Source of the DNA: Candidatus Kaelpia imicola
GTDB taxonomy: Bacteria; Omnitrophota; Gorgyraeia; Kaelpiales; Kaelpiaceae
Assembly (NCBI GenBank): GCA_030765505.1
Contig: JAVCCL010000018.1
Span: 1,064-65,063, forward strand
Direction of reading: 5' to 3'
Length of the DNA: 64,000 nucleotides
Part shown: positions 5,835-57,778 of the stretch, piece by piece
How the letters are laid out: each line of letters starts with the position of its first letter
Position numbering within the stretch: the stretch's first letter is position 1
The notes under the pieces: generated by a model
Told to the model about the DNA's origin: nothing
Database searches by the model: none
What the model saw: only the letters and a program-made list of their open reading frames with translations
Translations under genes and position numbers: made by a program

Positions 5835-8186
5835 GTGTTATTTATGTTACAATATTTAGAAATGAGAAACCTTTATTCGGACTATACCCAGAATATTCTT
5901 TGGTTAATAGAAGAGAGTAAATGGGCAAGAAAGCTGCAAAGTATACGGGAAGCCCAGTTTACTCTGGGGAACGGTTATTTGGGTATCAGGGGGATTTATG
6001 AAGAGATTCCTTATGATTGCCATCCCGGTACTTATATTGCCGGAATTTACGATAAGATGGCTGCCCAGGTTTCGAAAATAGTTAATTTACCCAATCCTAT
6101 TAGTTTTAAACTTACCGTGAAGGGGGAGAAACTCGATGTTATTGCCATGGATGTTCTTAGGCACAAAAGAACTCTTAATATGAAAAAGGGGGTATTACTC
6201 AGACATACTATATATAAAAATAGTAAAGGTAAGAATTTTGACTATCAATCGTTACGTTTTGTTTCCCAGCTGGATAAAAATATCGGTGTTATACAGGTTG
6301 CATTCACCCCTCTTAATGCAGGGTGTGAGGTTGATATCAGTACGAGTATCGATACCGCTGTTACTAATGTAGGTGCGGTAGCTGAGGGGAGACGGAAGCA
6401 TTTCCGGGTTAAAGAACTGGGTCAGCATCGAGGGACTGAGTATCTTGTCGCAGAGGCTTTGGAGAAAAAATATTCGATAGTCTATTGGTCTGGATTGTAC
6501 TATCAAGTTAATGGTAGAAAAATAATTGCCAGAGATAATATATTTCGTTTGAAGGTTAAAAAAAATCAGACTGTTGTATTTACCAAAATTTTTTGCATTA
6601 AACATTTTAATCACAACAATGATTATACTGCCCAGAAGAATGATGCCTTTGAAATTTTTTATACCGCTTTTCGGACTGGATTCAATATCTTGTTGAAAAA
6701 CCATATAACTGCCTGGGAACGGTTATGGAGGAGAGCGGATATTGTTATTGAAGGAAGAGCAAATATTCAGCAAAAACTGCGCTTCAATATTTATCATATG
6801 CTTATCTGCGCTCATTGCAACCAGGGGTTTTCGAGTATTGGAGCGCGGACCTTAAGCGGAGAGGGTTACCGCGGACATATCTTTTGGGATGCGGAAATCT
6901 TTCTTCTCCCTTTCTATCTATTCACTTTTCCTCAAGTAGCGAAAAATATGCTGCTCTACCGCTATCAAAGGCTTGATCAGGCGCGGGCAATTGCCAAAAG
7001 AGGAGGTTTTCAAGGAGCTCAATTTCCCTGGGAATCGGCAGGAACAGGGGAAGAAGAGACTCCCGAATGGGCTAGAGATATCGACAGAACAATTATCAAG
7101 ATTCATACCCATGAAATGGAACATCACATCAACGCCGATATATCCTATGCTGTTTACAGATATTATATTGCAACAGGAGATGTAAAATTTATCGAGAAAT
7201 ATGGCTGTGAAATGCTTGTAGAGACGGCGCGGTTTTGGGCCTCGCGTGTTCAGTGGAATGAGAAAAAACAGAGATATGAAATCAGGCATGTTATCGGTCC
7301 CGATGAGTTTCATATCGACGTTAATAATAATGCTTTTACCAATATGATGGCAAAGTGGAATTTGCTCAGTGCCTATAAAACGTGCAATATGCTTAAGAAA
7401 GATTCTGATTTCTATACCTTATTGAAAGCCAAACTGAATCTTAAAGAGCAGGAAGTAAAGTCATGGAAGAAAATTGCTTCTAAAATATGTGTCCTCAGCA
7501 ACAAAAAAAATGTCATTGAGCAGTTTGGTGGTTTTTTCAAATTAAAAAAGATTATTTTATCCAGGTTTGACGAAAATGGAATTCCTCTGATACCTGCTAA
7601 ATTAAAAGCGAAAGATTTTGGGAAGACTCAGATAATAAAACAGGCTGACGTATTGATGCTTATTACGCTTTTGAACGATATTTTCAGCAAAAAAACAAAA
7701 TTAGCGAATTATAAATTTTATCTTCCCAGGACAGTGCATCGTTCCTCCTTAAGTGTTGCGACACATGTTATAAACGCCTGTGAAGTCAGGGATCTACATA
7801 GGGCCAATGAGCTGTTCAATGTTGCTTTAAATACGGATATAAGCAATCTTTACGGTAATACTTCCGAGGGAATTCATGCTGCTTCTCTGGGAGGAAGCTG
7901 GCAGGCGATAGTGTTTGGTTTTGCCGGAGTTAAGATTAAAAGAGAGAAATTATTTATCAATCCTTACCTGCCGCGTTCATGGCAGAAGTTAAATTTTCAT
8001 CTGGCCTGGAGAGGAAGTTTGATTAATTTAGAAATGACTAATGAGATAATCAAAATAAAAGTTTCTTCTTCCCGGCTCAAAGATATAGAGATAGGTATTT
8101 TTGATAAATTAGGTTCCTTTAGAACTAATAGAGTCTATACTTTCAAACGTTCTATTGAGGGTTATAAAAAAGAGGATTATTACTGA
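5835..8186 (+). CDS. Glycoside hydrolase family 65 phosphorylase (kojibiose/trehalose/maltose phosphorylase-like)
   Basis: FTLGNGYLGIRG near the N-terminus. The GEGYRGHIFWDAEIFLLPFY catalytic-region motif is typical of GH65 (alpha/alpha)6-barrel phosphorylases. The stop TGA overlaps the next ATG (ATGA). Confidence 0.88.
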   Translation: MLFMLQYLEMRNLYSDYTQNILWLIEESKWARKLQSIREAQFTLGNGYLGIRGIYEEIPYDCHPGTYIAGIYDKMAAQVSKIVNLPNPISFKLTVKGEKLDVIAMDVLRHKRTLNMKKGVLLRHTIYKNSKGKNFDYQSLRFVSQLDKNIGVIQVAFTPLNAGCEVDISTSIDTAVTNVGAVAEGRRKHFRVKELGQHRGTEYLVAEALEKKYSIVYWSGLYYQVNGRKIIARDNIFRLKVKKNQTVVFTKIFCIKHFNHNNDYTAQKNDAFEIFYTAFRTGFNILLKNHITAWERLWRRADIVIEGRANIQQKLRFNIYHMLICAHCNQGFSSIGARTLSGEGYRGHIFWDAEIFLLPFYLFTFPQVAKNMLLYRYQRLDQARAIAKRGGFQGAQFPWESAGTGEEETPEWARDIDRTIIKIHTHEMEHHINADISYAVYRYYIATGDVKFIEKYGCEMLVETARFWASRVQWNEKKQRYEIRHVIGPDEFHIDVNNNAFTNMMAKWNLLSAYKTCNMLKKDSDFYTLLKAKLNLKEQEVKSWKKIASKICVLSNKKNVIEQFGGFFKLKKIILSRFDENGIPLIPAKLKAKDFGKTQIIKQADVLMLITLLNDIFSKKTKLANYKFYLPRTVHRSSLSVATHVINACEVRDLHRANELFNVALNTDISNLYGNTSEGIHAASLGGSWQAIVFGFAGVKIKREKLFINPYLPRSWQKLNFHLAWRGSLINLEMTNEIIKIKVSSSRLKDIEIGIFDKLGSFRTNRVYTFKRSIEGYKKEDYY

Positions 8187-9370
8187 TGAAGAAATTGAAT
8201 ATTGCGCAGTTCCATTGGGGGTTTCCTCCTATTATTGGCGGGGTAGAGACTCATCTTACGATTATTTTACCTCAGATGGTAAAATTAGGTCATTGTGTGA
8301 GTCTACTTACGGGTTCGGTCGAAGGGGTTGAAGGAAGATATAAATATCAAGGTGTGGATATTTACCGCGATCCTCTTATGGATTTAAACTGGCTTTATAA
8401 GAGAGGTTTAAGCGGACTGGAGGAGGAAATCAATAAAGCTTTTACTGCTTTTTTCGACGAATCGCAGCCGGATATTATTCATGTGCATAATATGCATTAT
8501 TTCAGTTCGATTCATATAAAGTTAATAGAGCGTTCAAGTAAAGAGAGGGGTATTCCTCTTATTCTCACTGCGCATAACGTTTGGGATGAGCTTCTGTTTT
8601 TAGAGCTTTGCCATAAAATTGACTGGTCGCATATAATTGCAGTGAGCCATTTTATTAAAAAAGAGCTTATCGGAATAGGAGTGGATGATACTAAAATTAC
8701 AGTTGTGCATCATGGGATAGATCAAGATAAGTTCAAATCCGGTGTGGATACGACAAATATATTAGAGAAATATCCGCAATTGAAGGGTAAAAAAATTATA
8801 TTTCATCCGGCCAGAATCGGTCTAGCTAAGGGGTGTGATACCAGTATCAAGGCAGTCAATATTCTTAAAGATATGGTCTCGGATGTGATGTTGGTTTTGG
8901 CTGGTTCAAAGAATATTGTTGACTGGGGAGGAACTCAGCAGAAAGATATTGCTTACCTGGTGAATCTTATCAAGCATTTTAATATTGAAGAGAGTGTTTT
9001 GATAGATATGTATACCTTGGATGAAGTAAAAGAGCTGTATGAGATAAGCGATGTCTGCCTTTACCCTTCTACAGCTTCAGAGCCTTTTGGGTTGACTATG
9101 CTGGAAGCTATGGCAATGGCAAAGCCGATAGTTGTTACCGAAATGGGTGGTATGCCGGAAATTATTGATGATGGAATAAATGGATTTGTTGTTCCTGTGA
9201 GAGATTTTGAGGCTCTGGCTGCAAAAACGTATCAATTGCTGAAAAATGTAAAATTAAAAAAAAGATTTGGCTATACCGGAAGACAGATAGTCGAAGCTCG
9301 GTATACAAAAGAGAAGGTAACACAGGAGACGCTTTCAATCTATAAGAAAGCATTAAACACTGTAAACTAG
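8186..9370 (+). CDS. Glycosyltransferase family 4 (GT-B retaining)
   Basis: C-terminal E-x7-E region EPFGLTMLEAMAMAKPIVVTEMGGMPEIIDDGINGFVV and the FHPARIGLAKG motif. Start is translationally coupled to the GH65 gene. Confidence 0.82.
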   Translation: MKKLNIAQFHWGFPPIIGGVETHLTIILPQMVKLGHCVSLLTGSVEGVEGRYKYQGVDIYRDPLMDLNWLYKRGLSGLEEEINKAFTAFFDESQPDIIHVHNMHYFSSIHIKLIERSSKERGIPLILTAHNVWDELLFLELCHKIDWSHIIAVSHFIKKELIGIGVDDTKITVVHHGIDQDKFKSGVDTTNILEKYPQLKGKKIIFHPARIGLAKGCDTSIKAVNILKDMVSDVMLVLAGSKNIVDWGGTQQKDIAYLVNLIKHFNIEESVLIDMYTLDEVKELYEISDVCLYPSTASEPFGLTMLEAMAMAKPIVVTEMGGMPEIIDDGINGFVVPVRDFEALAAKTYQLLKNVKLKKRFGYTGRQIVEARYTKEKVTQETLSIYKKALNTVN

Positions 9371-33704: not shown

Positions 33705-34856
33705 ATGATAGAGCGAAAAAGATATATTGATTCCATTAAAAAGGTACTTAAGAGAAGTCGGGCGGCTGCTCTTTTAGGTCCTCGTCAATGCGGTAAAACT
33801 ACACTAGCACAGAATCTCATTGACGTCCGTTCCCCTAATTATTTTGATCTTGAAGATCAAAGCAGTCTTATTGCTTTGGTTAACCCCAAAGGTGTACTTG
33901 AGCCGCTGAAAGGTCTGGTTGTTATTGATGAAGTTCAGCAGCGGCCTGAACTTTTCTCCGTTTTACGTGTTCTCTTAGATCGAAAACCTTTGCCTGCAAA
34001 TTTCCTTATTCTCGGAAGCGCATCTCCTGATTTTTTACGGCAATCATCAGAGTCTCTTGCAGGACGTTTGGAATTGATTGAAATGGGCGGGTTTAATCTT
34101 GCTGAGATTGGTGAAAAAAAAGTCTTACGGTTATGGTTAAGAGGGGGGTTTCCGTTATCGTTTTTAGCTAAAAGTGACGCAGATAGTTTTGCTTGGCGAA
34201 AAAGTTTTATTAAAACATTTTTAGAACGTGATTTGCGTGAACAGGGAATTGAACTGCCGTCTGTGACATTATATCGTTTTTGGGCTATGCTTGCCAACAG
34301 TCATGGGCAGATATGGAATGCAGCTCCAATTGCTTCTTCATTAGGTATTTCAGAGCCGACAGTCAGAAAATATTTGGATATTCTTACAGGTGTGTTTATG
34401 GTGCGTCAACTTCAGCCATGGCATGTAAATATTAAAAAGCGTCAAGTTAAATCACCAAAATTATATTTTCGTGATACGGGAATATTGAATTCTTTTTTGG
34501 AATTAAAAACGGAAGCAGAAGTTTTGCGTCACCAAATATGCGGAGCATCTTGGGAAGGTTTTGTAATCGAACAATTGATTTATATTCTTGAGATTGACCA
34601 TCCGTATTTCTGGGCAACACATCAAGGAGCAGAGATTGATCTGGTATTTAACAAAGGCGGGGCTATGTATGGCATTGAGATTAAACGAGCGGATGCTCCG
34701 ACGATAACTCTATCTATGAAGAATGCACTAAAGGATTTAAAACTCAGACGCATTGCTGTTATCTATCCTGGTAAAAAACGATATTCGATTCATAAACAGA
34801 TTGAGGTCGTGCCATTTGATGAAATTTTAGGCGGAATGAAGGGGTTATTGGGATAA
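33705..34856 (+). CDS. AAA+ ATPase of the DUF4143 (AAA_14 + DUF4143) family, copy 1
   Basis: Walker A LLGPRQCGKTTLA and Walker B VVIDEVQ. The characteristic C-terminal DUF4143 region is present. Confidence 0.85.
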   Translation: MIERKRYIDSIKKVLKRSRAAALLGPRQCGKTTLAQNLIDVRSPNYFDLEDQSSLIALVNPKGVLEPLKGLVVIDEVQQRPELFSVLRVLLDRKPLPANFLILGSASPDFLRQSSESLAGRLELIEMGGFNLAEIGEKKVLRLWLRGGFPLSFLAKSDADSFAWRKSFIKTFLERDLREQGIELPSVTLYRFWAMLANSHGQIWNAAPIASSLGISEPTVRKYLDILTGVFMVRQLQPWHVNIKKRQVKSPKLYFRDTGILNSFLELKTEAEVLRHQICGASWEGFVIEQLIYILEIDHPYFWATHQGAEIDLVFNKGGAMYGIEIKRADAPTITLSMKNALKDLKLRRIAVIYPGKKRYSIHKQIEVVPFDEILGGMKGLLG

Positions 34857-35605: not shown

Positions 35606-36394
35606 TTGAAGAGTATAATTACCCAATCAGAAGTATTCCTAGAGCAGGAATATTTTGACGATAAGAGTACCTCTTTAAAAGATATTATAATAGATGGTTT
35701 AAACATAAGATTCCTTCTTAAGGACGTAGACTCTAGAGAGTTAAGAGTAACTACGATATCAGATAAAGAGAGGGATGGTTATCATGAAAGAGAGCTGCTA
35801 TTTGAAGATCAGAATGTAGGTACTTTTTTTGTTACATTGCTTATTCCTCATGAAGAGAGAGATAGTTATTTTGCTATTTTAGGCCTTCCCGGCCATGGTA
35901 CATGGAATCAAGATTTTATAGAAAACTACCATGCTGGTGATCTAGCAAGAGCCGGCTTTATAGTTATAATACCATTTATGCGGGCTATGATGGATTGGGA
36001 GTCCGATCATGCAGTAAGTAAACATCTGTTATGTAATGGGTTTACCCTGATGGGTCTTAGAGTCTATGAATCCCTGCTTACCCTTAAATATCTTAAGTAT
36101 CTTGAAGAGGTTGATAGTAATAAGATTGGTATTTTAGCTCATTCAGGAGGTGCTGCTATTGCAAACCTTCTTATCTATGTAACTGATGATTTTAAAGCCC
36201 TCTTAAGAGATTATAATAGCAACTATCTCGATATTATCCTTGAAAAGCTTCACTGTGAGACTATACCCAGCATCTTTCCTTTCTATATGCTTATCAACTC
36301 TAAAGAATCTACCCCTATAGCTATTCTAGAAACACCATATGGATTTAAAGTTAATAGAGAGGATATAATAGTATTTTTTAATCAACATCTTTGA
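35606..36394 (+). CDS. Alpha/beta hydrolase (dienelactone hydrolase/esterase-like)
   Basis: GxSxG elbow AHSGGA. TTG start at 35606 preceded by AGAGGA, with no in-frame ATG upstream. Confidence 0.55.
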   Translation: MKSIITQSEVFLEQEYFDDKSTSLKDIIIDGLNIRFLLKDVDSRELRVTTISDKERDGYHERELLFEDQNVGTFFVTLLIPHEERDSYFAILGLPGHGTWNQDFIENYHAGDLARAGFIVIIPFMRAMMDWESDHAVSKHLLCNGFTLMGLRVYESLLTLKYLKYLEEVDSNKIGILAHSGGAAIANLLIYVTDDFKALLRDYNSNYLDIILEKLHCETIPSIFPFYMLINSKESTPIAILETPYGFKVNREDIIVFFNQHL

Positions 36395-36481
36395 TTTTAG
36401 AAAGCTTTAGCCTTTTTGACTAAAATCATTTCTTAATATATAATATAACCTCATTGACAACATAATTTTTTAGGAGGAATA

Positions 36482-38101
36482 ATGAGTGAGCCTAATTTTG
36501 ATGCTGTAATATTTGATCTTGACGGGGTTATTACCGATACTGCCGTCCTGCATGTTGAATCCTGGAAGGATATTTTTGACGACTATCTTAAGAAACTGGA
36601 AGCCCGAGGGGGTGAAAAGTTCCGCGAGTTTACCCATAAAGGCGACTACCTTCCCTATGTAGACGGTAAGCCGCGCTATGAAGGGGTTAAGAGTTTTCTT
36701 GCTTCACGCGGTATTGAGCTTCCATTTGGGGACTCAGGTGATGAAGCAGAGAGAGAGACTATATGCGGGTTGGGTAATAAGAAGAACGAACAGTTCGTCA
36801 AGCATCTTAAAGCTGAGGGTGCAGAGGTCTTTCAGTCAACGATTGAGTTTATTAAGGAGCTGCAGAGAAGAGGTATCAAGACAGGAGTTGCTTCATCATC
36901 TAAAAACTGTAAGACTATTCTTGAGTCTGTTGGTATCGAAAATGTGTTCCAAACCCGCGTTGACGGAGTAGTATCTGTAGAGTTAGATTTAAAAGGTAAA
37001 CCCGAAGCCGATATATTCCTGAAAGCAGCCTCTGATATAGGTGCAGAGCCGTCGCGTTCAGTTGTTGTTGAAGATGCAACGAGCGGTGTTATGGCGGGAC
37101 GTAACGGCGGATTTGGTCTGGTCCTTGGTATTGCGCGTGAGGGCCGTATTGAAGACTTGCTTGATAACGGTGCTGATATTGTTGTTTCCGACATGGCTGA
37201 TATATCTGTTGACTGGGTCGATAATTGGTTTAAGAAGAGACCCAGAGAACTCTTCAATAATTGGGATAAGAGCGATAGTGCTATAGATATTGATGGAGAG
37301 CTTATAGATAGTAGTTCTAATGTAAAGATAAACCCTCTCTATCTCTCTTCTGGTTTAGATCTATTCAAGGATAGGAGGCCTGTCATATTTCTTGATTATG
37401 ACGGTACTCTTACTCCGATAGTGGATAGACCTGAGCTTGCTCTGCTCTCAAGTGATATGCGGGAGGTAATCAAAGAGCTGATTGGGAAGTATACCGTAGC
37501 TATTGTAAGCGGGAGAGGGAGAGAGGATGTTGAGAACCTTGTAGATATTAAAGGTATATTCTATGCCGGTAACCATGGTTTTGATATCAAAGGCCCTTCC
37601 CTCTCCATGGTTCAGCCTGACGCAGAACGCGTAATTCCCGCAGTTAAAGAAGCAGTAGATTATTTAAAAAATAGGCTCTCATCTATTGATGGTCTATTGG
37701 TAGAGGAGAAGAAGTTTTCGGTTGCTGTCCATTATAGGCTTGTAGCTGAGGATAGATATCTGAGAGTTATTGAAGATGAGGTTAAGAAGGTAGTAGATAG
37801 AGAGGACTCTTTACGTCTTATGCATGGTAAGAAGGTCTTTGAGATCTTGCCCAATATTTACTGGAACAAGGGCTGCGTGATAAGATGGATAGTCGATATA
37901 CTCAGTCTCTCTTTTAAAGACAATTCAATTGTATATATAGGTGATGATACAACAGATGAAGATGCTTTTAGGGTTATCCGTTCTAGAGGCTGCGGTATTC
38001 TGGTAGCGGAAGAGCTGCGTTCTTCAGCTGCTGATTTTTGGGTCAGGAATCCTGATAGTGTTAAAAAGCTATTTAAGAGACTGATTGAATTGAAAGATTA
38101 A
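36482..38101 (+). CDS. Fused beta-phosphoglucomutase-like HAD domain (N) and trehalose-6-phosphate phosphatase-like HAD domain (C)
   Basis: N-terminal HAD motif I FDLDGVITDT with a beta-PGM-like cap region. A second HAD motif I FLDYDGTLTP and a C-terminal GDDTTDEDAF are typical of OtsB/T6PP. Confidence 0.78.
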   Translation: MSEPNFDAVIFDLDGVITDTAVLHVESWKDIFDDYLKKLEARGGEKFREFTHKGDYLPYVDGKPRYEGVKSFLASRGIELPFGDSGDEAERETICGLGNKKNEQFVKHLKAEGAEVFQSTIEFIKELQRRGIKTGVASSSKNCKTILESVGIENVFQTRVDGVVSVELDLKGKPEADIFLKAASDIGAEPSRSVVVEDATSGVMAGRNGGFGLVLGIAREGRIEDLLDNGADIVVSDMADISVDWVDNWFKKRPRELFNNWDKSDSAIDIDGELIDSSSNVKINPLYLSSGLDLFKDRRPVIFLDYDGTLTPIVDRPELALLSSDMREVIKELIGKYTVAIVSGRGREDVENLVDIKGIFYAGNHGFDIKGPSLSMVQPDAERVIPAVKEAVDYLKNRLSSIDGLLVEEKKFSVAVHYRLVAEDRYLRVIEDEVKKVVDREDSLRLMHGKKVFEILPNIYWNKGCVIRWIVDILSLSFKDNSIVYIGDDTTDEDAFRVIRSRGCGILVAEELRSSAADFWVRNPDSVKKLFKRLIELKD

Positions 38102-38102
38102 T

Positions 38103-40517
38103 ATGGTAGATTCCAGCTGGAAAGTAGTCTATAACGGATTTGATCCTGAAGAAGAGTCTCTTCGGGAATCGATCTGCACTCTTGCAAACGGCTATATCGG
38201 GGTAAGAGGAGCTGCTTATGAGTCCGGTGCTTCGCGTATCCATTATCCCGGGTCTTATCTCGGGGGAGGTTATAATAAGCTCCCTACCAATATTGCGGGA
38301 AGGACTGTATACAATGAAGACCTTGTCAATATTCCAAACTGCCTGCCTATAACGTTTAAGATTGCAGGTAGTGACTGGTTCTCTCCTTCAAGAGCCAAGA
38401 TAAGATTTTATCGTCAGGAGCTTGATATCAGGCGCGGGGTCTTAAAGAGGGATATAAGGTTCCAGAACCGGCTGGGACATAAGACACATATAGAGAGTCT
38501 TAGAGTTGTAAGTATGGCCAATCCCCATCTAATAAGCTATAAATATATTATAACCCCGGAAAATTACAGCGGCTGGATTACTGTCAGGACTATGCTTGAC
38601 GGTGCGGTTATAAATGCAGGTGTTGAGCGCTATAGACAGCTTAACTCAAAACATCTGATTCCTGTATCTTTAGGAAAGTTCAGCTCTAATGGTGTCTATC
38701 TTGTAATGAAGACCTCTCAATCTAAGATTACAATTGCTCAAGCCTCAAAAGTCCGTGTCTTTACTTCTAGTGCTGAGAAGAGAGTCAATATAAAACATAT
38801 CAGCAGAGGTAAGGAGAGGATAGATCAGGTATTCAGGTTATATCTAAAGCAGGGCAGGTGTTATGAGATAGAGAAGGTAGTAGCGGTCTATACATCTAAA
38901 GATCAGGGAATAGAGGAGCCTCTGGATTCTGCAATTCACTTGGTTAGGAGAGTATCAAAGTTTGAGAGCGTTCTAAAACCCCACGAGAGTCTCTGGGATG
39001 ATCTGTGGAGGAAGTTTGATATTCAGATTGATAGCGATATCTTCTCTCAGAAAGTATTAAGGCTCCACATCTTCCACCTTCTTCAGTCGGCCTCAGCTCA
39101 TATCACAAAGATAGATGCCGGCCTTCCTGCTAGAGGTTTACATGGCGAGGCATATAGGGGTCATATCTTCTGGGACGGGATATTTGCGATGGCGCTGTAT
39201 GACCTTCATCTGCCTGAGATATCTGAGTCTCTCCTGCTCTATCGCTACAGGAGATTGGATTGGGCTAGAAAGTATGCCAGAAGAGAGAAGGCCAAAGGAG
39301 CAATGTTTCCCTGGCAGAGCGGCTCAACGGGAGAAGAGGAGACCCAGATTGTCCACCTCAATCCCTTATCGGGTGAGTGGGGCCCGGACTACAGCCGTAA
39401 CCAGCGCCATGTCTCACTTGCAATTGCCTATAACGTTTGGCGTCATTATATGAAGACAAAGGATGCCGGCTTTCTTGCAGATTACGGAGCTGAGCTGATA
39501 CTCTCTATTGCCAGGTTCTTTGCCTCGATATCTAAGTTTGATCAGGAAGACGGCAGGTACCATATTGAGGGTGTTATGGGCCCGGATGAATTCCATGAGA
39601 AGTATTCAGATTCAGAAGAAGCGGGTTTAAAAGATAATGCCTATACGAATCTTATGACTGTCTGGCTGCTTATAAGAGCAAAGGAGACATTAAGTATCCT
39701 CTCATCTCAAGATAGACGCCGAATATCACGCAAGATAGGTTTTAAGAAAGAAGAGCTTGCGCTTTGGGAAGATATTACCCAGAAGATGAATGTTATCATA
39801 AATGAAGATGGTATTATTGCGCAGTTCGATGGCTACTTCGGGCTTAAGGAGCTTGATTGGGATAAGTATCGTGAAAGCTATGAGAGCATAGAGCGTCTGG
39901 ACAGGATTCTTAAAGCCGAAGGTAAGTCTCCTGATGATTATAAAGTAACTAAACAGGCTGATCTTCTGATGTTTTTCTATCTATTGAATTTGGCAGAGGT
40001 AAAAGAGATATTTAATAATCTGGGTTATGAATTCAGTAAAGATACTCTGAATAAAAACTATAAATATTATGTTAAGCGTACTTCTCATGGTTCTACCTTA
40101 AGCAAAGTAGTACACTGTTATATTGCTCACCTTTTGAATAAACCTAAAGAGACCTGGAGATGGTTCAATGAGGTGCTGGAGTCCGATATCTTTGATATTC
40201 AGAGCGGTACAACCTCTGAGGGAATACATATCGGTGTTATGGGCGGCTCTATAGATATTGTATTGCGCGGTTTTATAGGTTTAAGTGTTTTGAAGGATAG
40301 AATTAAACTCAACCCCCGTATTCCAAGGCGATGGCAGAGGATAAAATTTAGGATTAACTACAGAGGCAGCTGGATAACTTTCTCTGTAACAAATAGGCAG
40401 GTTATTGTCTTTGTTCAGGGGCCTAAGAATAAGATCTTTCCTACAGCTATTGAGATTGGTTCTAAGACTTACAGTGTTATCTATGGAAAACGCTCTAGAT
40501 TTACTATTAAGAATTAA
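38103..40517 (+). CDS. Glycoside hydrolase family 65 phosphorylase (second copy; trehalose/trehalose-6-P/kojibiose phosphorylase-like)
   Basis: GEAYRGHIFWDGIFAMALYDLHLPE catalytic motif and the same domain order as the 5835-8186 copy. Starts 2 nt after the upstream fusion gene. Confidence 0.88.
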   Translation: MVDSSWKVVYNGFDPEEESLRESICTLANGYIGVRGAAYESGASRIHYPGSYLGGGYNKLPTNIAGRTVYNEDLVNIPNCLPITFKIAGSDWFSPSRAKIRFYRQELDIRRGVLKRDIRFQNRLGHKTHIESLRVVSMANPHLISYKYIITPENYSGWITVRTMLDGAVINAGVERYRQLNSKHLIPVSLGKFSSNGVYLVMKTSQSKITIAQASKVRVFTSSAEKRVNIKHISRGKERIDQVFRLYLKQGRCYEIEKVVAVYTSKDQGIEEPLDSAIHLVRRVSKFESVLKPHESLWDDLWRKFDIQIDSDIFSQKVLRLHIFHLLQSASAHITKIDAGLPARGLHGEAYRGHIFWDGIFAMALYDLHLPEISESLLLYRYRRLDWARKYARREKAKGAMFPWQSGSTGEEETQIVHLNPLSGEWGPDYSRNQRHVSLAIAYNVWRHYMKTKDAGFLADYGAELILSIARFFASISKFDQEDGRYHIEGVMGPDEFHEKYSDSEEAGLKDNAYTNLMTVWLLIRAKETLSILSSQDRRRISRKIGFKKEELALWEDITQKMNVIINEDGIIAQFDGYFGLKELDWDKYRESYESIERLDRILKAEGKSPDDYKVTKQADLLMFFYLLNLAEVKEIFNNLGYEFSKDTLNKNYKYYVKRTSHGSTLSKVVHCYIAHLLNKPKETWRWFNEVLESDIFDIQSGTTSEGIHIGVMGGSIDIVLRGFIGLSVLKDRIKLNPRIPRRWQRIKFRINYRGSWITFSVTNRQVIVFVQGPKNKIFPTAIEIGSKTYSVIYGKRSRFTIKN

Positions 40518-44789: not shown

Positions 44790-45941
44790 ATGATTGAACG
44801 GAAGAAGGTTATAGATCGTATTACCGGAGCTTTAAACAGGGGGCGGATAGTCTCATTGCTGGGACCTCGCCAGTGTGGAAAAACAACTCTAGCTTGATAT
44901 TTTGCACAACCAGGATCATCTCTGTACTTTGATCTTGAGGATCCTGTTGACAGTGCAAAGATGATAGAGCCTAAAAATGTTTTAGAGAACCTTAAAGGAA
45001 CGGTTGTTATAGACGAGATTCAGCATCAGCCGGAGTTGTTTCCTCTTTTGCGGGTTTTGGCGGATAGAGCTCCATTGCCTGCTAAGTTTCTTATTCTCGG
45101 CAGTGCATCGCCCGATCTGGTCAAAGGCTCTTCTGAATCATTAGCCGGGAGAGTAGAGCGCATTCAGATAGGAGGGTTCTCTTTAGATGAGATTGGTGAG
45201 GAAAACTTTGAATCTCTTTGGCTGCGCGGAAGGCTGCCCCGGCCGTTTCTTGCTGATACAGATGATGAAAGTTTTATTTGGCTGAAAGAGTATACGCAGA
45301 GTTTTGTAGAGAGAGACCTTCCATTGCATGGGCTCTCTTTACCGCCTATGACGCTGTTGCGGTTTTGGACTATGCTGGCGCATTATCATGGGCAAGTTTT
45401 CAATGCCAGCGAAATAGCTCGTTCTTTAGGGATAAGCGTGATGACAGTTAAACGTTATCTGGATGTATTGACAGGTGTTTTTATGATTAGGCAGGTACAG
45501 CCATGGTTTGGAAATATTAAAAAGCGCCAAGTAAAATCTCCAAAGATTTATTTTTATGATACGGGTATTTTGCATTCTCTTCTAGGAATAGGGACGAAGA
45601 ATGATCTATCGGCTCACCCAAAGTACGGTGCTTCTTGGGAGGGTTTTGTCATGGAAGAGATTATTAATTCAGTTAAGCTTCATGAGGTTTATTTTTGGAG
45701 GACACATCAAGGGGCGGAGATTGATTTAATATTTAACAAGGGCGGGCGAATGTATGGTGTTGAGATCAAACGTGCTGATGCACCGGTTATGACACCATCA
45801 ATGCGTATTGCTCTAGAAGATTTAAAACTCAAGCGCATTGCCGTCATCTATCCCGGGAATCGGCACTATTCTATTCACAGGCAGATTGATGTTGTGCCGT
45901 TTAATGAGATTTTAGGCGGGATGGAGGGGCTGTTTAGGTAA
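44790..45941 (+). pseudogene. AAA+ ATPase DUF4143 family, copy 2, with an in-frame TGA at 44895-44897
   Basis: MIERKKVIDRITGALNRGRIVSLLGPRQCGKTTLA*YFAQPGSSLYFDLED...: the Walker A segment and the rest of the protein (track ORF 44961-45941) share one frame. They are broken only by TGA where family members usually carry Arg (CGA). Confidence 0.7.
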
Positions 45942-53566: not shown

Positions 53567-56008
53567 ATGAGAAAAAAAACAAGCTTACAATATAGACCAG
53601 AAGCAAAGAGACTTCTGGTTTTTCTTTTAGCAGCTCTCTTACTAACTTCCTTAAGCCCTGCATTATATGCTGCCGGTAGAGACTCTTCCATTGAAGAGGA
53701 GAGAGCAAAGGCTCAGAAGTTAATCCAGCAGGAAGAGAAGGAAGATAGGCGTGAGAAGCAGGCCAGAATAAACAGCCTTTATAAAGAAGCACTCTCTTTC
53801 TATTACGAAGATAATCTAAGAGCAGCTCAGGAGACATTTGAATTGATTCTCCTTATAGCTCCGGATGAGAAAAAAGCAAATAGTTTTATAGAGAGTAAGA
53901 TTCCTGCAAGATCTGAAAAGTTAGTAGAGTTAAAACAGAGAGAGGCAGAGAGAGAAGCAAAGAAGAGGGAAGAGGAGCTTAAGCGTTTAAGAGCCAGGGC
54001 AGAGAGAGAGGCTAAGAGACAGATAGAAGAGCAGGAGCGTGACCAGAAAAAGGCAGAGCTTGAGAGAGAACGTGCCCAGCGTGAAGCAGAGCGTATAAGA
54101 GAGAGACAGAGCATAGAGGAAGAGAAGCAGGCTAAGACAGCAGAGAGAGAGAGGAAGCGTGCTGATAAGGAAGCAGAATTAGAGAGAAAACGCGCAGAGA
54201 AAGAAGCTAAAAGAGCAAGGCAGGATAGAGTAGGTGAGATTTGTGAAGAAGCACTATCTTATTACAAAGAAGGTAATATAGACCAGTCTATAAATTCATT
54301 CCAGCAGGTTCTTAAATTAGATCCGGATAATAAGAGAGCAGAGAGCTACTTAAATAATAAGATTCCTGCTAAGAGAGAGCGCCTTAATGAGATTGCAGAG
54401 CGCGAAAGAGAGAGTCAGAGAGTAGAGAAAGAGAAAGAACTATCTAAATTAAAAGAGAGAGCCCAAAAAGAGGCTCAAGCTCAAGAGAGAGAGCTGGCCA
54501 AAGAGAAGAAGCTTGCTGAAGCTATAGCCGGGAAGCAGGCCAAGAGAATAGAGAGAGAGAAGAAGCTTGCTGAGGCTGAAGCCGAGAAGCATGCCAAGAG
54601 AATAGAAAAAGAGAAGAGGTTGGCTGGAAAAGAGGCTAAGAAGCAGGCTGAGATAGCAGAGAAAAAGGCTCAAAAAGAAACAGCGAAGTTAGAGAGAGAG
54701 AAGAAGCGCGCTGAAAAAGAGGCTCAAAAACAGGCTAAGAAATTAGAGAGAGAGAAGAGGTTGGCTGGAAAAGAGGCTAAGAAGCAGGCTGAGATAGCAG
54801 AGAGAGAGGCTCAAAAGGAATCTAAAAAGTTAGAGATAGAGCAAAAAAGCGCCAGTATAGATACTAAGAGAGAGACAGCAAGGTTAGAAAAAGAGAAGAG
54901 GTTGGCTGAAAAAGAAGCTAAGAAGCAGGCTAAGATAGCAGAGAAAGAAGCCAGAAAACAGGCAAAAATAGCTAAGAAAGAAGCTAAGAAACTTGCAAAA
55001 GCAGAAGGAGTAGAGGAGGAAGTTAAAGAGGTAAGAGAGAAAAAAGAGAAGGCTCCTCGAGTAATCAGTGAAGATAAGCTTAAGAGAAAAGCAGAGGTAG
55101 AAGAGAAGCTTAGAAAGAAAAGAGAGGCCAGGGAAGCAAAGCTTGCCAAGAAAAAAGGGAAGCTGGAAGATAAGAAAGCTGAGAAAATTAAGACAAGAGA
55201 AGATAAAATAAGAGTTGAAGAAGAAGCCCGTATTGCAGCTACGCAGAGCGATTTCATTACTATAAACAGAGTTGTTACTACGCCTGGCTTGGTTCAGGAT
55301 GCAGATGCTTTTGTTGAGGCTAAAAGAGAAGAAGAGTCTATCGCTCTATATAACTACGCGTTAGATGTAACAAAAGATAAATCAATCAGGAAAGAGATTG
55401 CGCTTAAGAAGAGAGCTGCTTTAAAGGCGATAAAGAAGAAAGATAAGCAGAAGGCAAGAGACGAGTATAAGCAGGAAGTGAAGAAAAAGCATGAGACTCA
55501 TCGTGCCAAGATAGAGGCTAAGAGAGAGCAGCGTACTCAAAAGAAAGAGAATAGTAGAAAGATAAACGACCTCTATAGAGAAGCGCTTTCATTATATTAT
55601 GATAATAAGTTTGATGAAGCAGAGGCTAAGTTTAATGAGATCTTAGGATTCTCACCTGATGAAAAAAGAGCCAGGAAGTTTATAGACGTTAAGATTCCTG
55701 CAAGAAAAGAGCAGCTTGAGAATTTAGAAAATAAAACTAAATTACGTAAAGATAAAATAGAAGAGAAGAGCCGTGCTGATAGAGAGGCTAAGAAGCAGGC
55801 TGAGATAGCAGAGAGAGAGGCTCAAAAAGAAACAGCGAAGTTAGAGAGAGAGAAGAAGCGTGCTGAAAAAGAGGCTCAAAAACAGGCTAAGAAATTAGAG
55901 AAAGAAAAGAGGTTAGCTGATAAAGAAGCTGAGAAGGCTCGCATTAAAGCTGAAAGAGAAGAGAAGAAGCAGGAAAAAGAAGAGGAAATTCAGGGAGATA
56001 TAAAATAG
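53567..56008 (+). CDS. Secreted Lys/Glu-rich coiled-coil protein with three conserved TPR-like modules
   Basis: Signal peptide MRKKTSLQYRPEAKRLLVFLLAALLLTSLSPALYA. Three copies of an approximately 55-aa module, each ending in KIPA[RK]xExL (aa ~60-120, ~225-285, ~635-695). Long charged low-complexity helical runs (AKKQAEIAE..., EKKRAEKEAQKQAKKLE...) lie between them. Stop TAG at 56006-56008 directly abuts the tpsB ATG at 56009. Confidence 0.7.
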   Translation: MRKKTSLQYRPEAKRLLVFLLAALLLTSLSPALYAAGRDSSIEEERAKAQKLIQQEEKEDRREKQARINSLYKEALSFYYEDNLRAAQETFELILLIAPDEKKANSFIESKIPARSEKLVELKQREAEREAKKREEELKRLRARAEREAKRQIEEQERDQKKAELERERAQREAERIRERQSIEEEKQAKTAERERKRADKEAELERKRAEKEAKRARQDRVGEICEEALSYYKEGNIDQSINSFQQVLKLDPDNKRAESYLNNKIPAKRERLNEIAERERESQRVEKEKELSKLKERAQKEAQAQERELAKEKKLAEAIAGKQAKRIEREKKLAEAEAEKHAKRIEKEKRLAGKEAKKQAEIAEKKAQKETAKLEREKKRAEKEAQKQAKKLEREKRLAGKEAKKQAEIAEREAQKESKKLEIEQKSASIDTKRETARLEKEKRLAEKEAKKQAKIAEKEARKQAKIAKKEAKKLAKAEGVEEEVKEVREKKEKAPRVISEDKLKRKAEVEEKLRKKREAREAKLAKKKGKLEDKKAEKIKTREDKIRVEEEARIAATQSDFITINRVVTTPGLVQDADAFVEAKREEESIALYNYALDVTKDKSIRKEIALKKRAALKAIKKKDKQKARDEYKQEVKKKHETHRAKIEAKREQRTQKKENSRKINDLYREALSLYYDNKFDEAEAKFNEILGFSPDEKRARKFIDVKIPARKEQLENLENKTKLRKDKIEEKSRADREAKKQAEIAEREAQKETAKLEREKKRAEKEAQKQAKKLEKEKRLADKEAEKARIKAEREEKKQEKEEEIQGDIK
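54632..54767 (+). repeat. Intragenic near-identical DNA repeat, copy 1 (~136 bp)
   Basis: GAGGCTAAGAAGCAGGCTGAGATAGCAGAG...GAAATTAGAG...GAGGTTGGCTG recurs at 55784-55919 with a handful of mismatches. Partial further copies lie at about 54526-54610 and 54775-54815. Confidence 0.7.
55784..55919 (+). repeat. Intragenic near-identical DNA repeat, copy 2 (~136 bp)
   Basis: See 54632-54767. Confidence 0.7.
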
Positions 56009-57778
56009 ATGAAGTTTATTAACTTGCTTATTGCCTATGCTCTTATATTGAGTGTCCCGGTCTATGCGGATGAAGCAGCTAGTGCGGGGGATATGCAGCA
56101 GATTCTTGATAGATTGGACCAGCTTCAGGGTAAGGTAACTCAACTTGAGAGTAAGGTCAAAGAGCAGGATGAAGTGATTAAGAGGCAGAATCAGGCTCTG
56201 GATAAATTAGGTGAGATGGTACCGGAGGTTAAGAAAGCTATGGCACCGCCTGAGCCTAAGGTTGTTGTCAGTAATTTTGTCTTAAGCGGTGTAAATCTCT
56301 TTGATCCGATAGACTTTGAGCCTGTACTTAAGAAGTACAGGAGTAAAGAGTTAGGAATAAGCGACTTAAAGACTATATCCGATGAGTTAACAGCGTTCTA
56401 CCGTTCTAAAGGTTATATTACATCTCTTGCCTATGCTCCGACTCAGGAGATTGAGAATGAGACTGTTGAGTTTAGGGTAATAGAGGGTAGAGTAGGTAAT
56501 ATTGAATTGGAAGGCGGAGAGTACTTTAAGAAAGAGACAATGGCCAAGAGAATTACGATTGAAGAGGGTCAGGTCCTTAATTATGAAAGACTTCAGCGTG
56601 ATGTAAGAAAATTAAATAAGCAGCCTGACAGAACTATGAAGGCAATCCTTCTTCCGGGTCAAGATAAAGGAACAACAGATATACTCATCAAGATGGAAGA
56701 AGAGAGCGATCCAAAACATTTCTATTTCGACTGTAGTAATACTGGAACTGAAGAGACAAAGACAGCCCGTTTTGGTCTAGGTTTTGCTCATAATAATCTT
56801 CTTGGTTATGATGATATCTTATCCATTAAAGCTAGAGTCGGTGACTGGGATATCTACTCAATAAGCGCGGACTACAATGTTCCAATTAATAAGTATAATA
56901 CCCGTATCGGTGCCTATGGAATATTTTCTCATACGGATATAGGCGGTCAGTTTACAGTTATCGAGCCTGAGGGTTCAGCCACAGCATTAGGTGCATATAT
57001 TACTCACCCTCTATTTGATAAAGATTATTTTGATCCAGTGGCTATCAATCTATCAAGTGATGTTATAGCAGGACTTGATTTAATAGATGTTAAAAACATG
57101 CTGTTAGGTGAAGAGACTTCTCACGATGTCTTACGCGTTGCTAAATTAGGTATTAGCTTTGATGAGAGAGATGCATTGGGAAGAACGTTCTTTAATAATG
57201 AGTTTAGAGTTGGAATCGATGGGCTTGGTTCGATGGATAGCAATGATGAATCCTCATCCATTATAGATGCAGGAAGTGAGTTCATGAAATATACCGGTAC
57301 TCTAACTCGTATAACACGTCTTCCATTCAGCATGATGTTTATAAATAACTTAAAGTTCCAGCATACAAATAATCCGCTTGTTACAAGCGAACAGCTGAGT
57401 CTGGGCGGAGCTGATACAATAAGAGGTTATCCTCAGAATGATTACTTAGCAGACTTTGGTTATGTATGTACGTTGGAGCTGCGTACACCCGCATTTATAT
57501 TCCCACGTGAAATTAAAGTTCCTTACGATGATAAAAAGACTCCAATTATGGATGCAGTTCAGTTTGTATACTTTGTTGACTTTGGTAAAGGACATCGTAA
57601 GAATCCGCGTGTAGGTGAAACAAAAGATCAGTTTATGATTGGAACCGGTTTCGGTTTCAGGTTTGATCTATATGAACATCTGCGTGCCAGACTGGACTTT
57701 GGATTCCCTGCGGGTAATGAAGAACCTTCAGACGGATCCTCCGGTACAGTCCACGTAGGCGTACAATACGAATTCTAA
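56009..57778 (+). CDS. Two-partner-secretion outer-membrane transporter (TpsB; ShlB/FhaC/HecB family)
   Basis: Signal peptide, an approximately 60-aa coiled-coil N-region, a POTRA-like segment (ITSLAYAPTQEIENETVEFRVIEGRVGNIELEGGEYFKKETMAKRI), and a C-terminal beta-barrel ending in an aromatic residue (...VGVQYEF). Confidence 0.82.
   Translation: MKFINLLIAYALILSVPVYADEAASAGDMQQILDRLDQLQGKVTQLESKVKEQDEVIKRQNQALDKLGEMVPEVKKAMAPPEPKVVVSNFVLSGVNLFDPIDFEPVLKKYRSKELGISDLKTISDELTAFYRSKGYITSLAYAPTQEIENETVEFRVIEGRVGNIELEGGEYFKKETMAKRITIEEGQVLNYERLQRDVRKLNKQPDRTMKAILLPGQDKGTTDILIKMEEESDPKHFYFDCSNTGTEETKTARFGLGFAHNNLLGYDDILSIKARVGDWDIYSISADYNVPINKYNTRIGAYGIFSHTDIGGQFTVIEPEGSATALGAYITHPLFDKDYFDPVAINLSSDVIAGLDLIDVKNMLLGEETSHDVLRVAKLGISFDERDALGRTFFNNEFRVGIDGLGSMDSNDESSSIIDAGSEFMKYTGTLTRITRLPFSMMFINNLKFQHTNNPLVTSEQLSLGGADTIRGYPQNDYLADFGYVCTLELRTPAFIFPREIKVPYDDKKTPIMDAVQFVYFVDFGKGHRKNPRVGETKDQFMIGTGFGFRFDLYEHLRARLDFGFPAGNEEPSDGSSGTVHVGVQYEF

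Follow-up and report, generated by a model that had tools for sequence, protein, structure and literature searches.

A 64-kb window of DNA (the whole stretch analysed here) from a metagenome-assembled genome (MAG) of Candidatus Kaelpia imicola (Omnitrophota), Ace Lake, Antarctica, carries two adjacent genes which, in our reading, probably form an operon that makes trehalose from hexose phosphates without nucleoside diphosphate glucose (NDP-glucose) and without the trehalose-6-phosphate (T6P) synthase OtsA. The first gene encodes a fusion of a beta-phosphoglucomutase (beta-PGM)-type HAD domain, hereafter HAD1, with a T6P phosphatase HAD domain, hereafter HAD2, while the second encodes a GH65 phosphorylase predicted to be of the T6P-phosphorylase type. 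A wider claim, which we regard as evenly poised, is that the pair represents a natural and unrecognised nucleotide-sugar-free pathway, occurring in seven or more phyla in the form of a two-gene operon, and in Mycobacteriales as a single trifunctional enzyme, and that this pathway gives M. tuberculosis OtsB1 its function.

The gene pair and its immediate context

The features of the pair and of the gap upstream of it are listed below with their coordinates in the window, strand and basis.

36482-38101, + strand: bifunctional gene, 539 aa, beta-PGM-type HAD-IA plus T6P phosphatase HAD-IIB (open reading frame (ORF), domain models, alignments)
36500-37231, + strand: HAD1, beta-PGM-type, residues ~7-250 (TIGR02009, alignments to 8h5s and 1lvh)
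37373-38086, + strand: HAD2, T6P phosphatase, residues ~298-535 (TIGR00685, alignment to 5gvx)
38103-40517, + strand: GH65 phosphorylase gene of predicted T6P-phosphorylase type, 804 aa (Pfam, bit scores, specificity residues)
36472-36477, + strand: strong Shine-Dalgarno sequence AGGAGG, 4 nt before the ATG of the fusion gene (read from the sequence)
36416-36444, + strand: promoter-like TTGACT-17-TATAAT upstream of the fusion gene (consensus match only)
36454-36483, + strand: second promoter-like site, 11/12 match (consensus match only)

The 539-aa product of the fusion gene is 100% identical to the NCBI entry 'trehalose-phosphatase [Candidatus Kaelpia imicola]' (P0001). Its stop codon, TAA at 38099-38101, is followed by a single spacer base and then by the ATG of the GH65 gene at 38103; because only one base separates the two codons, the genes are almost certainly read from one transcript and coupled in translation. 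The two top-scoring promoter-like matches (11/12) between 35000 and 41600 both fall in the 87-nt gap 5' of the fusion gene, within a region in which the total number of promoter-like matches is not above chance and terminator-like matches show no excess over chance. The window was found to hold no tRNA or Rfam element, and hence no riboswitch 5' of the pair. As judged from the alignments described below, none of the three modules has lost a catalytic residue.

Assignment of the two HAD domains

Residues 7-211 of the fusion protein match TIGR02009, the model for the beta-PGM family hydrolases, with 161.2 bits against a cut-off of 153.35. In an alignment to the Lactococcus lactis beta-PGM 1lvh, HAD1 keeps every position that we take to be catalytic or substrate-binding in the L. 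lactis enzyme (1lvh/1o08; D8, D10, T16, H20, R49, S114, S116, K117, N118, K145, E169 and D170), in the form of D12, D14, T20, H24, R65, S138, S140, K141, N142, K173, E197 and D198. Among these, D12 corresponds to the nucleophile, D14 to the acid/base, T20 to the hinge, R65/S140/K141/N142 to the distal phosphate site, and E197/D198 to the Mg site. The closest solved relative of HAD1 is the beta-PGM of PDB entry 8h5s (211 bits, 46.2% identity over 234 residues, the full length of the domain), which we take to be Rv3400 of Mycobacterium tuberculosis (Mtb) and which shares with the HAD1 clade a cap insertion some 25 residues long. The beta-PGM activity of Rv3400 has been validated in vitro, and its knockout accumulates beta-glucose-1-phosphate (beta-G1P) 30-fold (bioRxiv 10.1101/2025.11.20.689507).

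HAD2 scores well above the cut-offs of both the trehalose-phosphatase equivalog TIGR00685 (167.8 bits, cut-off 68.05) and the Pfam family Trehalose_PPase, PF02358 (163.1 bits, cut-off 27), and is 38.2% identical to Mtb OtsB2 (PDB 5gvx). Motifs I-IV are intact, namely D305-Y-D307-GTL, S343-G-R, K463 and GDDTTDED from residue 487, together with H365-G. T6P phosphatases recognise their substrate by shape complementarity, with no single residue being critical (PMC4081830), and therefore no crisp T6P specificity motif exists to check in HAD2.

Specificity of the GH65 phosphorylase

The GH65 ORF carries the N-terminal (PF03636), central (PF03632) and C-terminal (PF03633) domains of the family, with Pfam scores of 229, 395 and 45 bits, respectively, and its catalytic acid is E496. 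The phosphate site described for GH65 phosphorylases, K/R330, S631, S632 and H675 in CsKP numbering (PMC11442529), is represented by R344, S664/T665 and H709; the Ser-Thr that replaces Ser-Ser is also found in PDB 9lb6, probably a T6P phosphorylase. The catalytic acid and all these phosphate-site residues are invariant in the syntenic partners described below. De Beul et al. (PMC8537180) defined six specificity positions in GH65 (CsKP 64/392/394/402/416/585), at which the T6P phosphorylases, subgroup 22, read DQGQDE. The window enzyme matches this subgroup at five of the six, D73, Q405, G407, Q415 and E606. In the same study, the subgroup-22 enzyme of Caldithrix (CaGP) used glucose-6-phosphate (G6P) as its sole acceptor among 46 (PMC8537180).

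Class membership was compared by bit scores against solved structures, a set without any trehalose phosphorylase, and the window GH65 scored 525 bits against 9lb6, 377 against kojibiose phosphorylase (KP), 273 against glucosylglycerol phosphorylase (GGP) and 206 against maltose phosphorylase (MP). A reciprocal control with a second type of Omnitrophota GH65 (GH65b, contig L002) gave 593 bits to the KP 3wiq and 264 to 9lb6, and the KP-type control residues at CsKP 392/394/402 are E/A/P. Since the bit scores and this control run in opposite ways, the window GH65 does not group with KP or MP in this comparison. On the combined pattern of motif and bit scores it is of the T6P-phosphorylase type, and it is predicted to catalyse the reversible phosphorolysis of T6P to beta-G1P and G6P. 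The same pattern argues against a trehalose, maltose or kojibiose phosphorylase and against a hydrolase, for which the intact phosphate site also speaks to the contrary; these readings were rejected.

PDB 9lb6 itself was deposited as 'trehalose-6-phosphate hydrolase' despite its phosphorylase phosphate site, likely a misannotation, and we found no paper citing this PDB code.

The initial annotation of this DNA, made from its letters, had described one polypeptide with a beta-PGM-like N-terminal HAD and an OtsB-like C-terminal HAD, followed immediately by a GH65 enzyme of the trehalose/T6P phosphorylase type. Both ORFs are exactly as it described them, and both HAD assignments stand, given the family models passed, the intact motifs and the identities to 8h5s and OtsB2. 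The GH65 falls with the T6P phosphorylases, and not with the maltose or kojibiose enzymes whose company would have spoken against that description.

A proposed route from hexose phosphates to trehalose

The three predicted activities can be arranged into a short route. HAD1 would interconvert G6P and beta-G1P; the GH65, working in reverse phosphorolysis, would join beta-G1P and G6P into T6P with release of phosphate (Pi); and HAD2 would hydrolyse T6P to trehalose and Pi, an irreversible step that would pull the two reversible ones forward. The net conversion would be 2 G6P + H2O -> trehalose + 2 Pi, favourable by roughly 10-15 kJ/mol as estimated from standard free energies. If the G6P came from glycogen phosphorolysis, no ATP or UTP would be spent on trehalose, a saving that would benefit a fermenter living on limited energy in a cold, saline lake. 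Some beta-G1P might also be supplied by a KP-type GH65 (GH65b) encoded ~30 kb upstream in the window, in which case the beta-PGM would run downhill to the G6P acceptor.

The direction of flux and the physiological role of the module are what we infer from these features. We favour the anabolic direction because the dephosphorylation of T6P is the only irreversible step, and no net conversion other than that of 2 G6P to trehalose and 2 Pi draws on all three activities. The synthetic direction of a T6P phosphorylase has been run in vitro with a yield of 93% (PMC13121652), and CaGP forms T6P from beta-G1P and G6P (PMC8537180).

A tblastn search with a GT20 domain found no GT20 (OtsA) in the 64 kb, so that the absence of an otsA-like gene nearby, claimed in the initial annotation, extends to the whole window. 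Pfam scans, which took in the substantial ORFs of the window and left out a few ORFs of 100-160 aa and those nested in other genes, likewise detected no GT20, TreS/Y/Z/T, phosphotransferase system (PTS), sugar transporter or sugar regulator. The possible OtsA-independent trehalose route of that annotation gains from the domain identities, the specificity signature, and the synteny and fusions described in the following sections, and we now consider it probable.

Distribution and synteny of the fusion

Proteins related to the di-HAD fusion are common in Omnitrophota, with more than 100 listed at 55-81% identity, and an exhaustive search of 1.84 billion representatives returned 2125 matches at E<=1e-30. 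Two-domain proteins of about 500-550 aa make up most of the best 150 representatives, and both nucleophile motifs are kept in 97 of these 150. By profile search the fusion was also found in Thermodesulfobacteriota, including the cultured Desulfuromonas soudanensis and Desulfuromonas sp. AOP6, as well as in Chloroflexota, Binatia, Methylomirabilales, Abyssubacteria, and Gamma- and Alphaproteobacteria.

The order of fusion gene followed by GH65 gene is conserved in eight of nine genomic contexts, with the two genes overlapping or a few bases apart and the flanking genes unrelated. These eight span four phyla and comprise five Omnitrophota contigs, D. soudanensis (Thermodesulfobacteriota), whose pair lies within 1871211-1888785 of CP010802.1, a gammaproteobacterial MAG and a Binatia MAG, and the T6P phosphorylase signature is kept in all the syntenic partner GH65s. 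In the nine neighbourhoods, no GT20 gene was found in the immediate vicinity of the pair, and neither they nor the window contain a trehalose PTS, trehalose kinase, transporter, stand-alone pgmB or TreR-like regulator. In relatives, the genes near the module are consistent with storage or osmoprotection: a glycogen phosphorylase immediately 5' of the module (L006), an alpha-PGM near it (L087), TreZ-like, MalQ/TreY-like and GlgC genes beside it (L089), GlgX/GlgB-like genes (L090), and MscS and OsmC (L002, L005).

Several unusual proteins were encountered among these relatives. On the gammaproteobacterial contig (L089, 2855-8008), a 1717-aa protein combining MalQ (GH77) with an alpha-amylase/TreY-like part follows the TreZ-like gene and lies directly 5' of the pair. 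Other architectures include an adenylate kinase-HAD-T6Pase fusion (P0169, 700 aa), a HAD-T6Pase with a response-regulator receiver domain (P0354, 671 aa), and three proteins in which a beta-PGM-type HAD is joined directly to GH65, with the phosphatase domain absent (P0227, P0230, P0264). The top match to the fusion, P0006 (871 aa), consists of four tandem beta-PGM-type HADs with DxDG at residues 12, 264, 516 and 768; its cluster includes P0300 (998 aa), and it could be either a true multi-domain protein or an assembly artefact.

Triple fusions in Mycobacteriales and a probable link to OtsB1

All three modules, in the order HAD1-T6Pase-GH65, occur on one polypeptide of 1270-1340 aa in at least six independent 50%-identity clusters, one of them that of Nocardia transvalensis WP_040754421.1. 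When the products of the window pair are concatenated, they can be aligned along their whole length with six triple fusions, the identity being 24-52% for HAD1 and HAD2 and 34-47% for GH65, and in four of these fusions no active-site motif of the three modules has been lost. The Nocardia transvalensis protein, with all active-site motifs intact, is 46% (HAD1), 38% (HAD2) and 42% (GH65) identical to the window pair.

Relatives of this protein number at least 551 in species genomes, and the best 80 all belong to Mycobacteriales (Nocardia, Rhodococcus, Prescottella, Mycobacterium and Mycolicibacterium). Among these 80, the GH65 T6P phosphorylase signature is kept in about 78 and the beta-PGM nucleophile motif in at least 31; the nucleophile region is intact in Nocardia and in some Mycobacterium triple fusions. 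Triple fusions probably occur in Chloroflexota too, where a partial protein (P0373) ends after the GH65 N-terminal domain.

These proteins recall OtsB1 (Rv2006) of Mtb, a T6P phosphatase homologue of 1327 aa with no mutant phenotype and a function reported as unknown (PMC11046441), which has also been reported to be without biochemical characterisation (PMC11046441; bioRxiv 10.1101/2024.11.12.623260). Because of its size and its Mycobacterium homologues, Rv2006 appears to be the fused form of the two window genes. M. tuberculosis is not among the best 80 loci matched by the Nocardia protein, so that the link to OtsB1 comes through its relatives and the literature. The Mycobacteriales proteins, and probably OtsB1 with them, match the window pair in their three modules and in module order, but there the modules form one polypeptide of ~1300 aa, whereas the window holds the split form in two genes; those organisms also differ in possessing OtsA, TreS and TreYZ.

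Counterevidence and alternative explanations

Several observations weigh against the proposed route. The beta-PGM equilibrium lies roughly 28:1 towards G6P, and the conversion of G6P to beta-G1P is uphill; flux depends on the pull of the phosphatase or on another beta-G1P source, and the steady-state level of beta-G1P would therefore be low unless another GH65, such as that at 5835-8186, supplies it. The enzyme activities of the three modules, and of the clade as a whole, are predictions from sequence, and HAD1 lies under the cut-off of the strict beta-PGM equivalog TIGR01990 (116.6 versus 189.4 bits). The sixth specificity position of the GH65, CsKP 416, falls in a gapped loop where the alignment is ambiguous, giving W426 in the pairwise comparison with D429 three residues on; 9lb6 shows the same W/D pattern around this position. 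The entry 9lb6 is in turn probably a T6P phosphorylase, judging by the name under which it was deposited, by a site of the phosphorylase type and by how Feng et al. 2025 is titled. Of the best 80 Mycobacteriales relatives, about 45, mostly from Mycolicibacterium and Mycobacterium, have a truncated or mutated beta-PGM nucleophile region (e.g. FDLGGVV), which, with the GH65 and phosphatase signatures persisting, looks like lineage-specific decay of one module. On the ninth contig, from Methylomirabilales, the fusion has no adjacent GH65 and TreT is nearby, and P0177 (990 aa) is an OtsA(GT20)-HAD-T6Pase fusion with an intact beta-PGM motif; these two cases show that other trehalose routes, too, can make use of the di-HAD protein. 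Finally, we infer that OtsA is absent from the Kaelpia genome from a search that covered the 64-kb window.

P0177 and the confinement of the OtsA search to the window also speak for the strongest alternative, which we nevertheless regard as unlikely: that the module buffers T6P on a canonical OtsA pathway. Under this explanation, OtsA encoded elsewhere would make T6P, HAD2 would act as OtsB, and GH65 with beta-PGM would form a reversible overflow valve through which excess, toxic T6P is removed as G6P when phosphate is high or trehalose is not needed. The accumulation of T6P is indeed toxic in nematodes (PMC4081830), and OtsA is known from the Actinobacteria that carry triple fusions (PMC11046441). 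Against such a buffer stand the lack of GT20 both in the 64 kb and close to the pair in the nine neighbourhoods, and the competition for the same substrate that would arise between a valve and a productive phosphatase on one polypeptide. Fusions with GH65 also outnumber those with OtsA by about 11 to one (P0177) among the best 150 representatives. In addition, the paper describing Kaelpia credits it with glycogen synthesis only, trehalose synthesis being credited to other Omnitrophota genera (PMC8542988), which is weak evidence that no canonical trehalose pathway was found there; those of its supplement files that were searched yielded no trehalose or ots genes.

We consider it improbable that the GH65 and the phosphatase act on a different phosphorylated alpha-glucoside, formed for example with another hexose-6-phosphate acceptor, and so make another compatible solute. 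Specificity is predicted, the nearest relatives with a solved structure or known activity being only 38-47% identical, the T6P phosphatases recognise shape and offer no residue motif (PMC4081830), and the L. lactis T6P phosphorylase takes some alternative acceptors in vitro, according to Taguchi 2017 as cited in PMC11442529. T6P is, however, indicated independently by the phosphatase equivalog and by the GH65 subgroup-22 signature together with the best solved relative, and the Caldithrix enzyme with the same motif accepted none of the other compounds offered besides G6P.

Least probable of all is a catabolic role of the Lactococcus type, in which trehalose, taken up or recycled, would be phosphorylated to T6P, GH65 with Pi would release beta-G1P and G6P, and HAD1 would feed glycolysis: this is the only documented physiological role of T6P phosphorylase (Andersson 2001, as cited in PMC11442529 and PMC12125463), and an Rv3400-type beta-PGM supports growth of Mtb on trehalose, but the PTS, kinase, transporter and TreR-like regulator that would go with it are missing from the window and the nine related neighbourhoods, and a covalently fused T6P phosphatase would drain the pathway's own substrate into a futile cycle, so that its repeated fusion makes no sense for T6P catabolism. 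The initial annotation had left the direction open; its anabolic option is favoured by the synteny and by triple fusions that include an irreversible phosphatase, and its catabolic option is disfavoured.

Relation to known systems

The closest known counterparts of the window GH65 are the T6P phosphorylases (EC 2.4.1.216, subgroup 22), represented by L. lactis TrePP, the enzymes of Ca. Kuenenia stuttgartiensis and Caldithrix abyssi (CaGP), and probably 9lb6. The likeness extends to the three-domain GH65 fold, the catalytic Glu, the phosphate site and the D-Q-G-Q-x-E signature. In Lactococcus, TrePP is catabolic, and its gene has a trehalose PTS and a stand-alone pgmB as neighbours, whereas the window GH65 is translationally coupled to a di-HAD fusion, with no uptake genes. 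The proposed route resembles the OtsA/OtsB pathway in its T6P intermediate and in its final step, carried out by an OtsB-family HAD-IIB phosphatase, but the GT20 synthase of that pathway uses UDP- or ADP-glucose, where the proposed route would use beta-G1P and a phosphorylase.

Mtb OtsB2 (Rv3372; 5gvx) has in common with the window fusion its two-domain layout, in addition to the 38% identity in the catalytic domain. Its N-terminal domain, presumably non-catalytic, aligns with the query through residues 87-164 only, opposite query residues 177-254, that is, the end of HAD1 and the linker; HAD1 of the window fusion, in contrast, is fully intact. This alignment suggests that OtsB2 descends, in degenerate form, from the same two-domain protein.

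The closest functional precedents are in vitro T6P cascades combining maltose phosphorylase, beta-PGM and T6P phosphorylase (Taguchi 2020; PMC13121652), in which T6P phosphorylase likewise works in the synthetic direction with beta-PGM. They show that the scheme is thermodynamically and kinetically feasible, although they are engineered, described as 'new-to-nature', start from maltose and stop at T6P. Recent literature places these enzymes elsewhere: in a 2025 review TrePP figures solely among the routes of T6P degradation (PMC12125463), a 2024 review of GH65 describes its enzymes as typically catabolic (PMC11442529), and a route to T6P that needs no synthase is termed 'new-to-nature' in a paper of 2026 (PMC13121652). 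We found no paper proposing the route in vivo, in a search with subscription literature outside its coverage. The three enzyme families are known and their genes are annotated, as 'trehalose-phosphatase' or, wrongly, as 'alpha,alpha-trehalase', and it is the pathway that appears unrecognised. The latter label is the one given by JGI to many of the fusions and triple fusions, likely a misannotation.

Trehalose ranks among the major stress protectants and serves mycobacteria as an essential precursor of the cell envelope; its recognised biosynthesis routes are OtsAB, TreYZ, TreS, TreT and TreP. If the proposed route is correct, nature already makes wide use of a synthase-independent path to T6P, glycogen can be converted to trehalose free of ATP and UTP, and the metabolic reconstructions of uncultured phyla will change, Kaelpia itself having been scored without trehalose synthesis. 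OtsB1, which belongs to the DosR regulon and is induced by carbon starvation, would then supply trehalose from hexose phosphates under a shortage of energy and nucleotide sugars, and the roughly twenty-year-old question of its role would become a direct experiment. Biotechnology would gain a compact cassette of two genes or one. The route is testable, since some carriers, Desulfuromonas soudanensis and Nocardia species among them, are in culture. The mechanism is chemically unsurprising; it is the distribution, the fusions and the OtsB1 link that make a long-standing question testable.

Other features of the window

The genes flanking the pair are housekeeping genes for glycine cleavage, lipoate ligase and synthase, an Na+/H+ exchanger, cysteine/homocysteine synthesis, MnmA, NadA, Fur and Suf. 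About 30 kb upstream of the module, the same window holds a second GH65 with a glycosyltransferase gene, a pair that the initial annotation did not mention.

5835-8186, + strand: GH65b, kojibiose-phosphorylase type (Pfam GH65 N/m/C; KP signature FPWESAG...EETP)
8186-9370, + strand: GT4 glycosyltransferase (Pfam; no NCBIfam model at cut-off)

The start codon of the GT4 gene overlaps the stop codon of GH65b by one base. The window GH65b is 67% identical to the GH65b of contig L002, which adjoins the trehalose module there; in that contig and in one other from Omnitrophota (L005), the GH65b and GT4 pair, preceded by an MscS channel, lies next to the module. GH65b and GT4 may make and degrade another alpha-1,2-glucoside, and GH65b is a possible alternative source of beta-G1P for the module.

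Two ORFs located 5' of these gene pairs lack family matches, and neither is conserved beside the module in relatives: a 713-aa ORF at 3486-5627 (+), 5' of GH65b, with no Pfam or NCBIfam match, and a 262-aa ORF at 35606-36394 (+), 5' of the fusion gene, with no Pfam match and a GxSxG-like AHSGG motif. AAA_14/DUF4143 ATPase genes at 33705-34856 and 44961-45941 (+) bracket a block of ~10 kb that holds the module, the second of them being without the N-terminal part of the AAA domain. Further downstream, within 53567-57778 (+), an 813-aa repetitive coiled-coil protein rich in K/E/A/R, with an N-terminal hydrophobic segment that by eye resembles a signal peptide, is immediately followed by a POTRA outer-membrane transporter of the ShlB/FhaC type, a layout resembling two-partner secretion. 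The repetitive coiled-coil gene accounts for the extreme AT and GC skew of the window at 54-56 kb.

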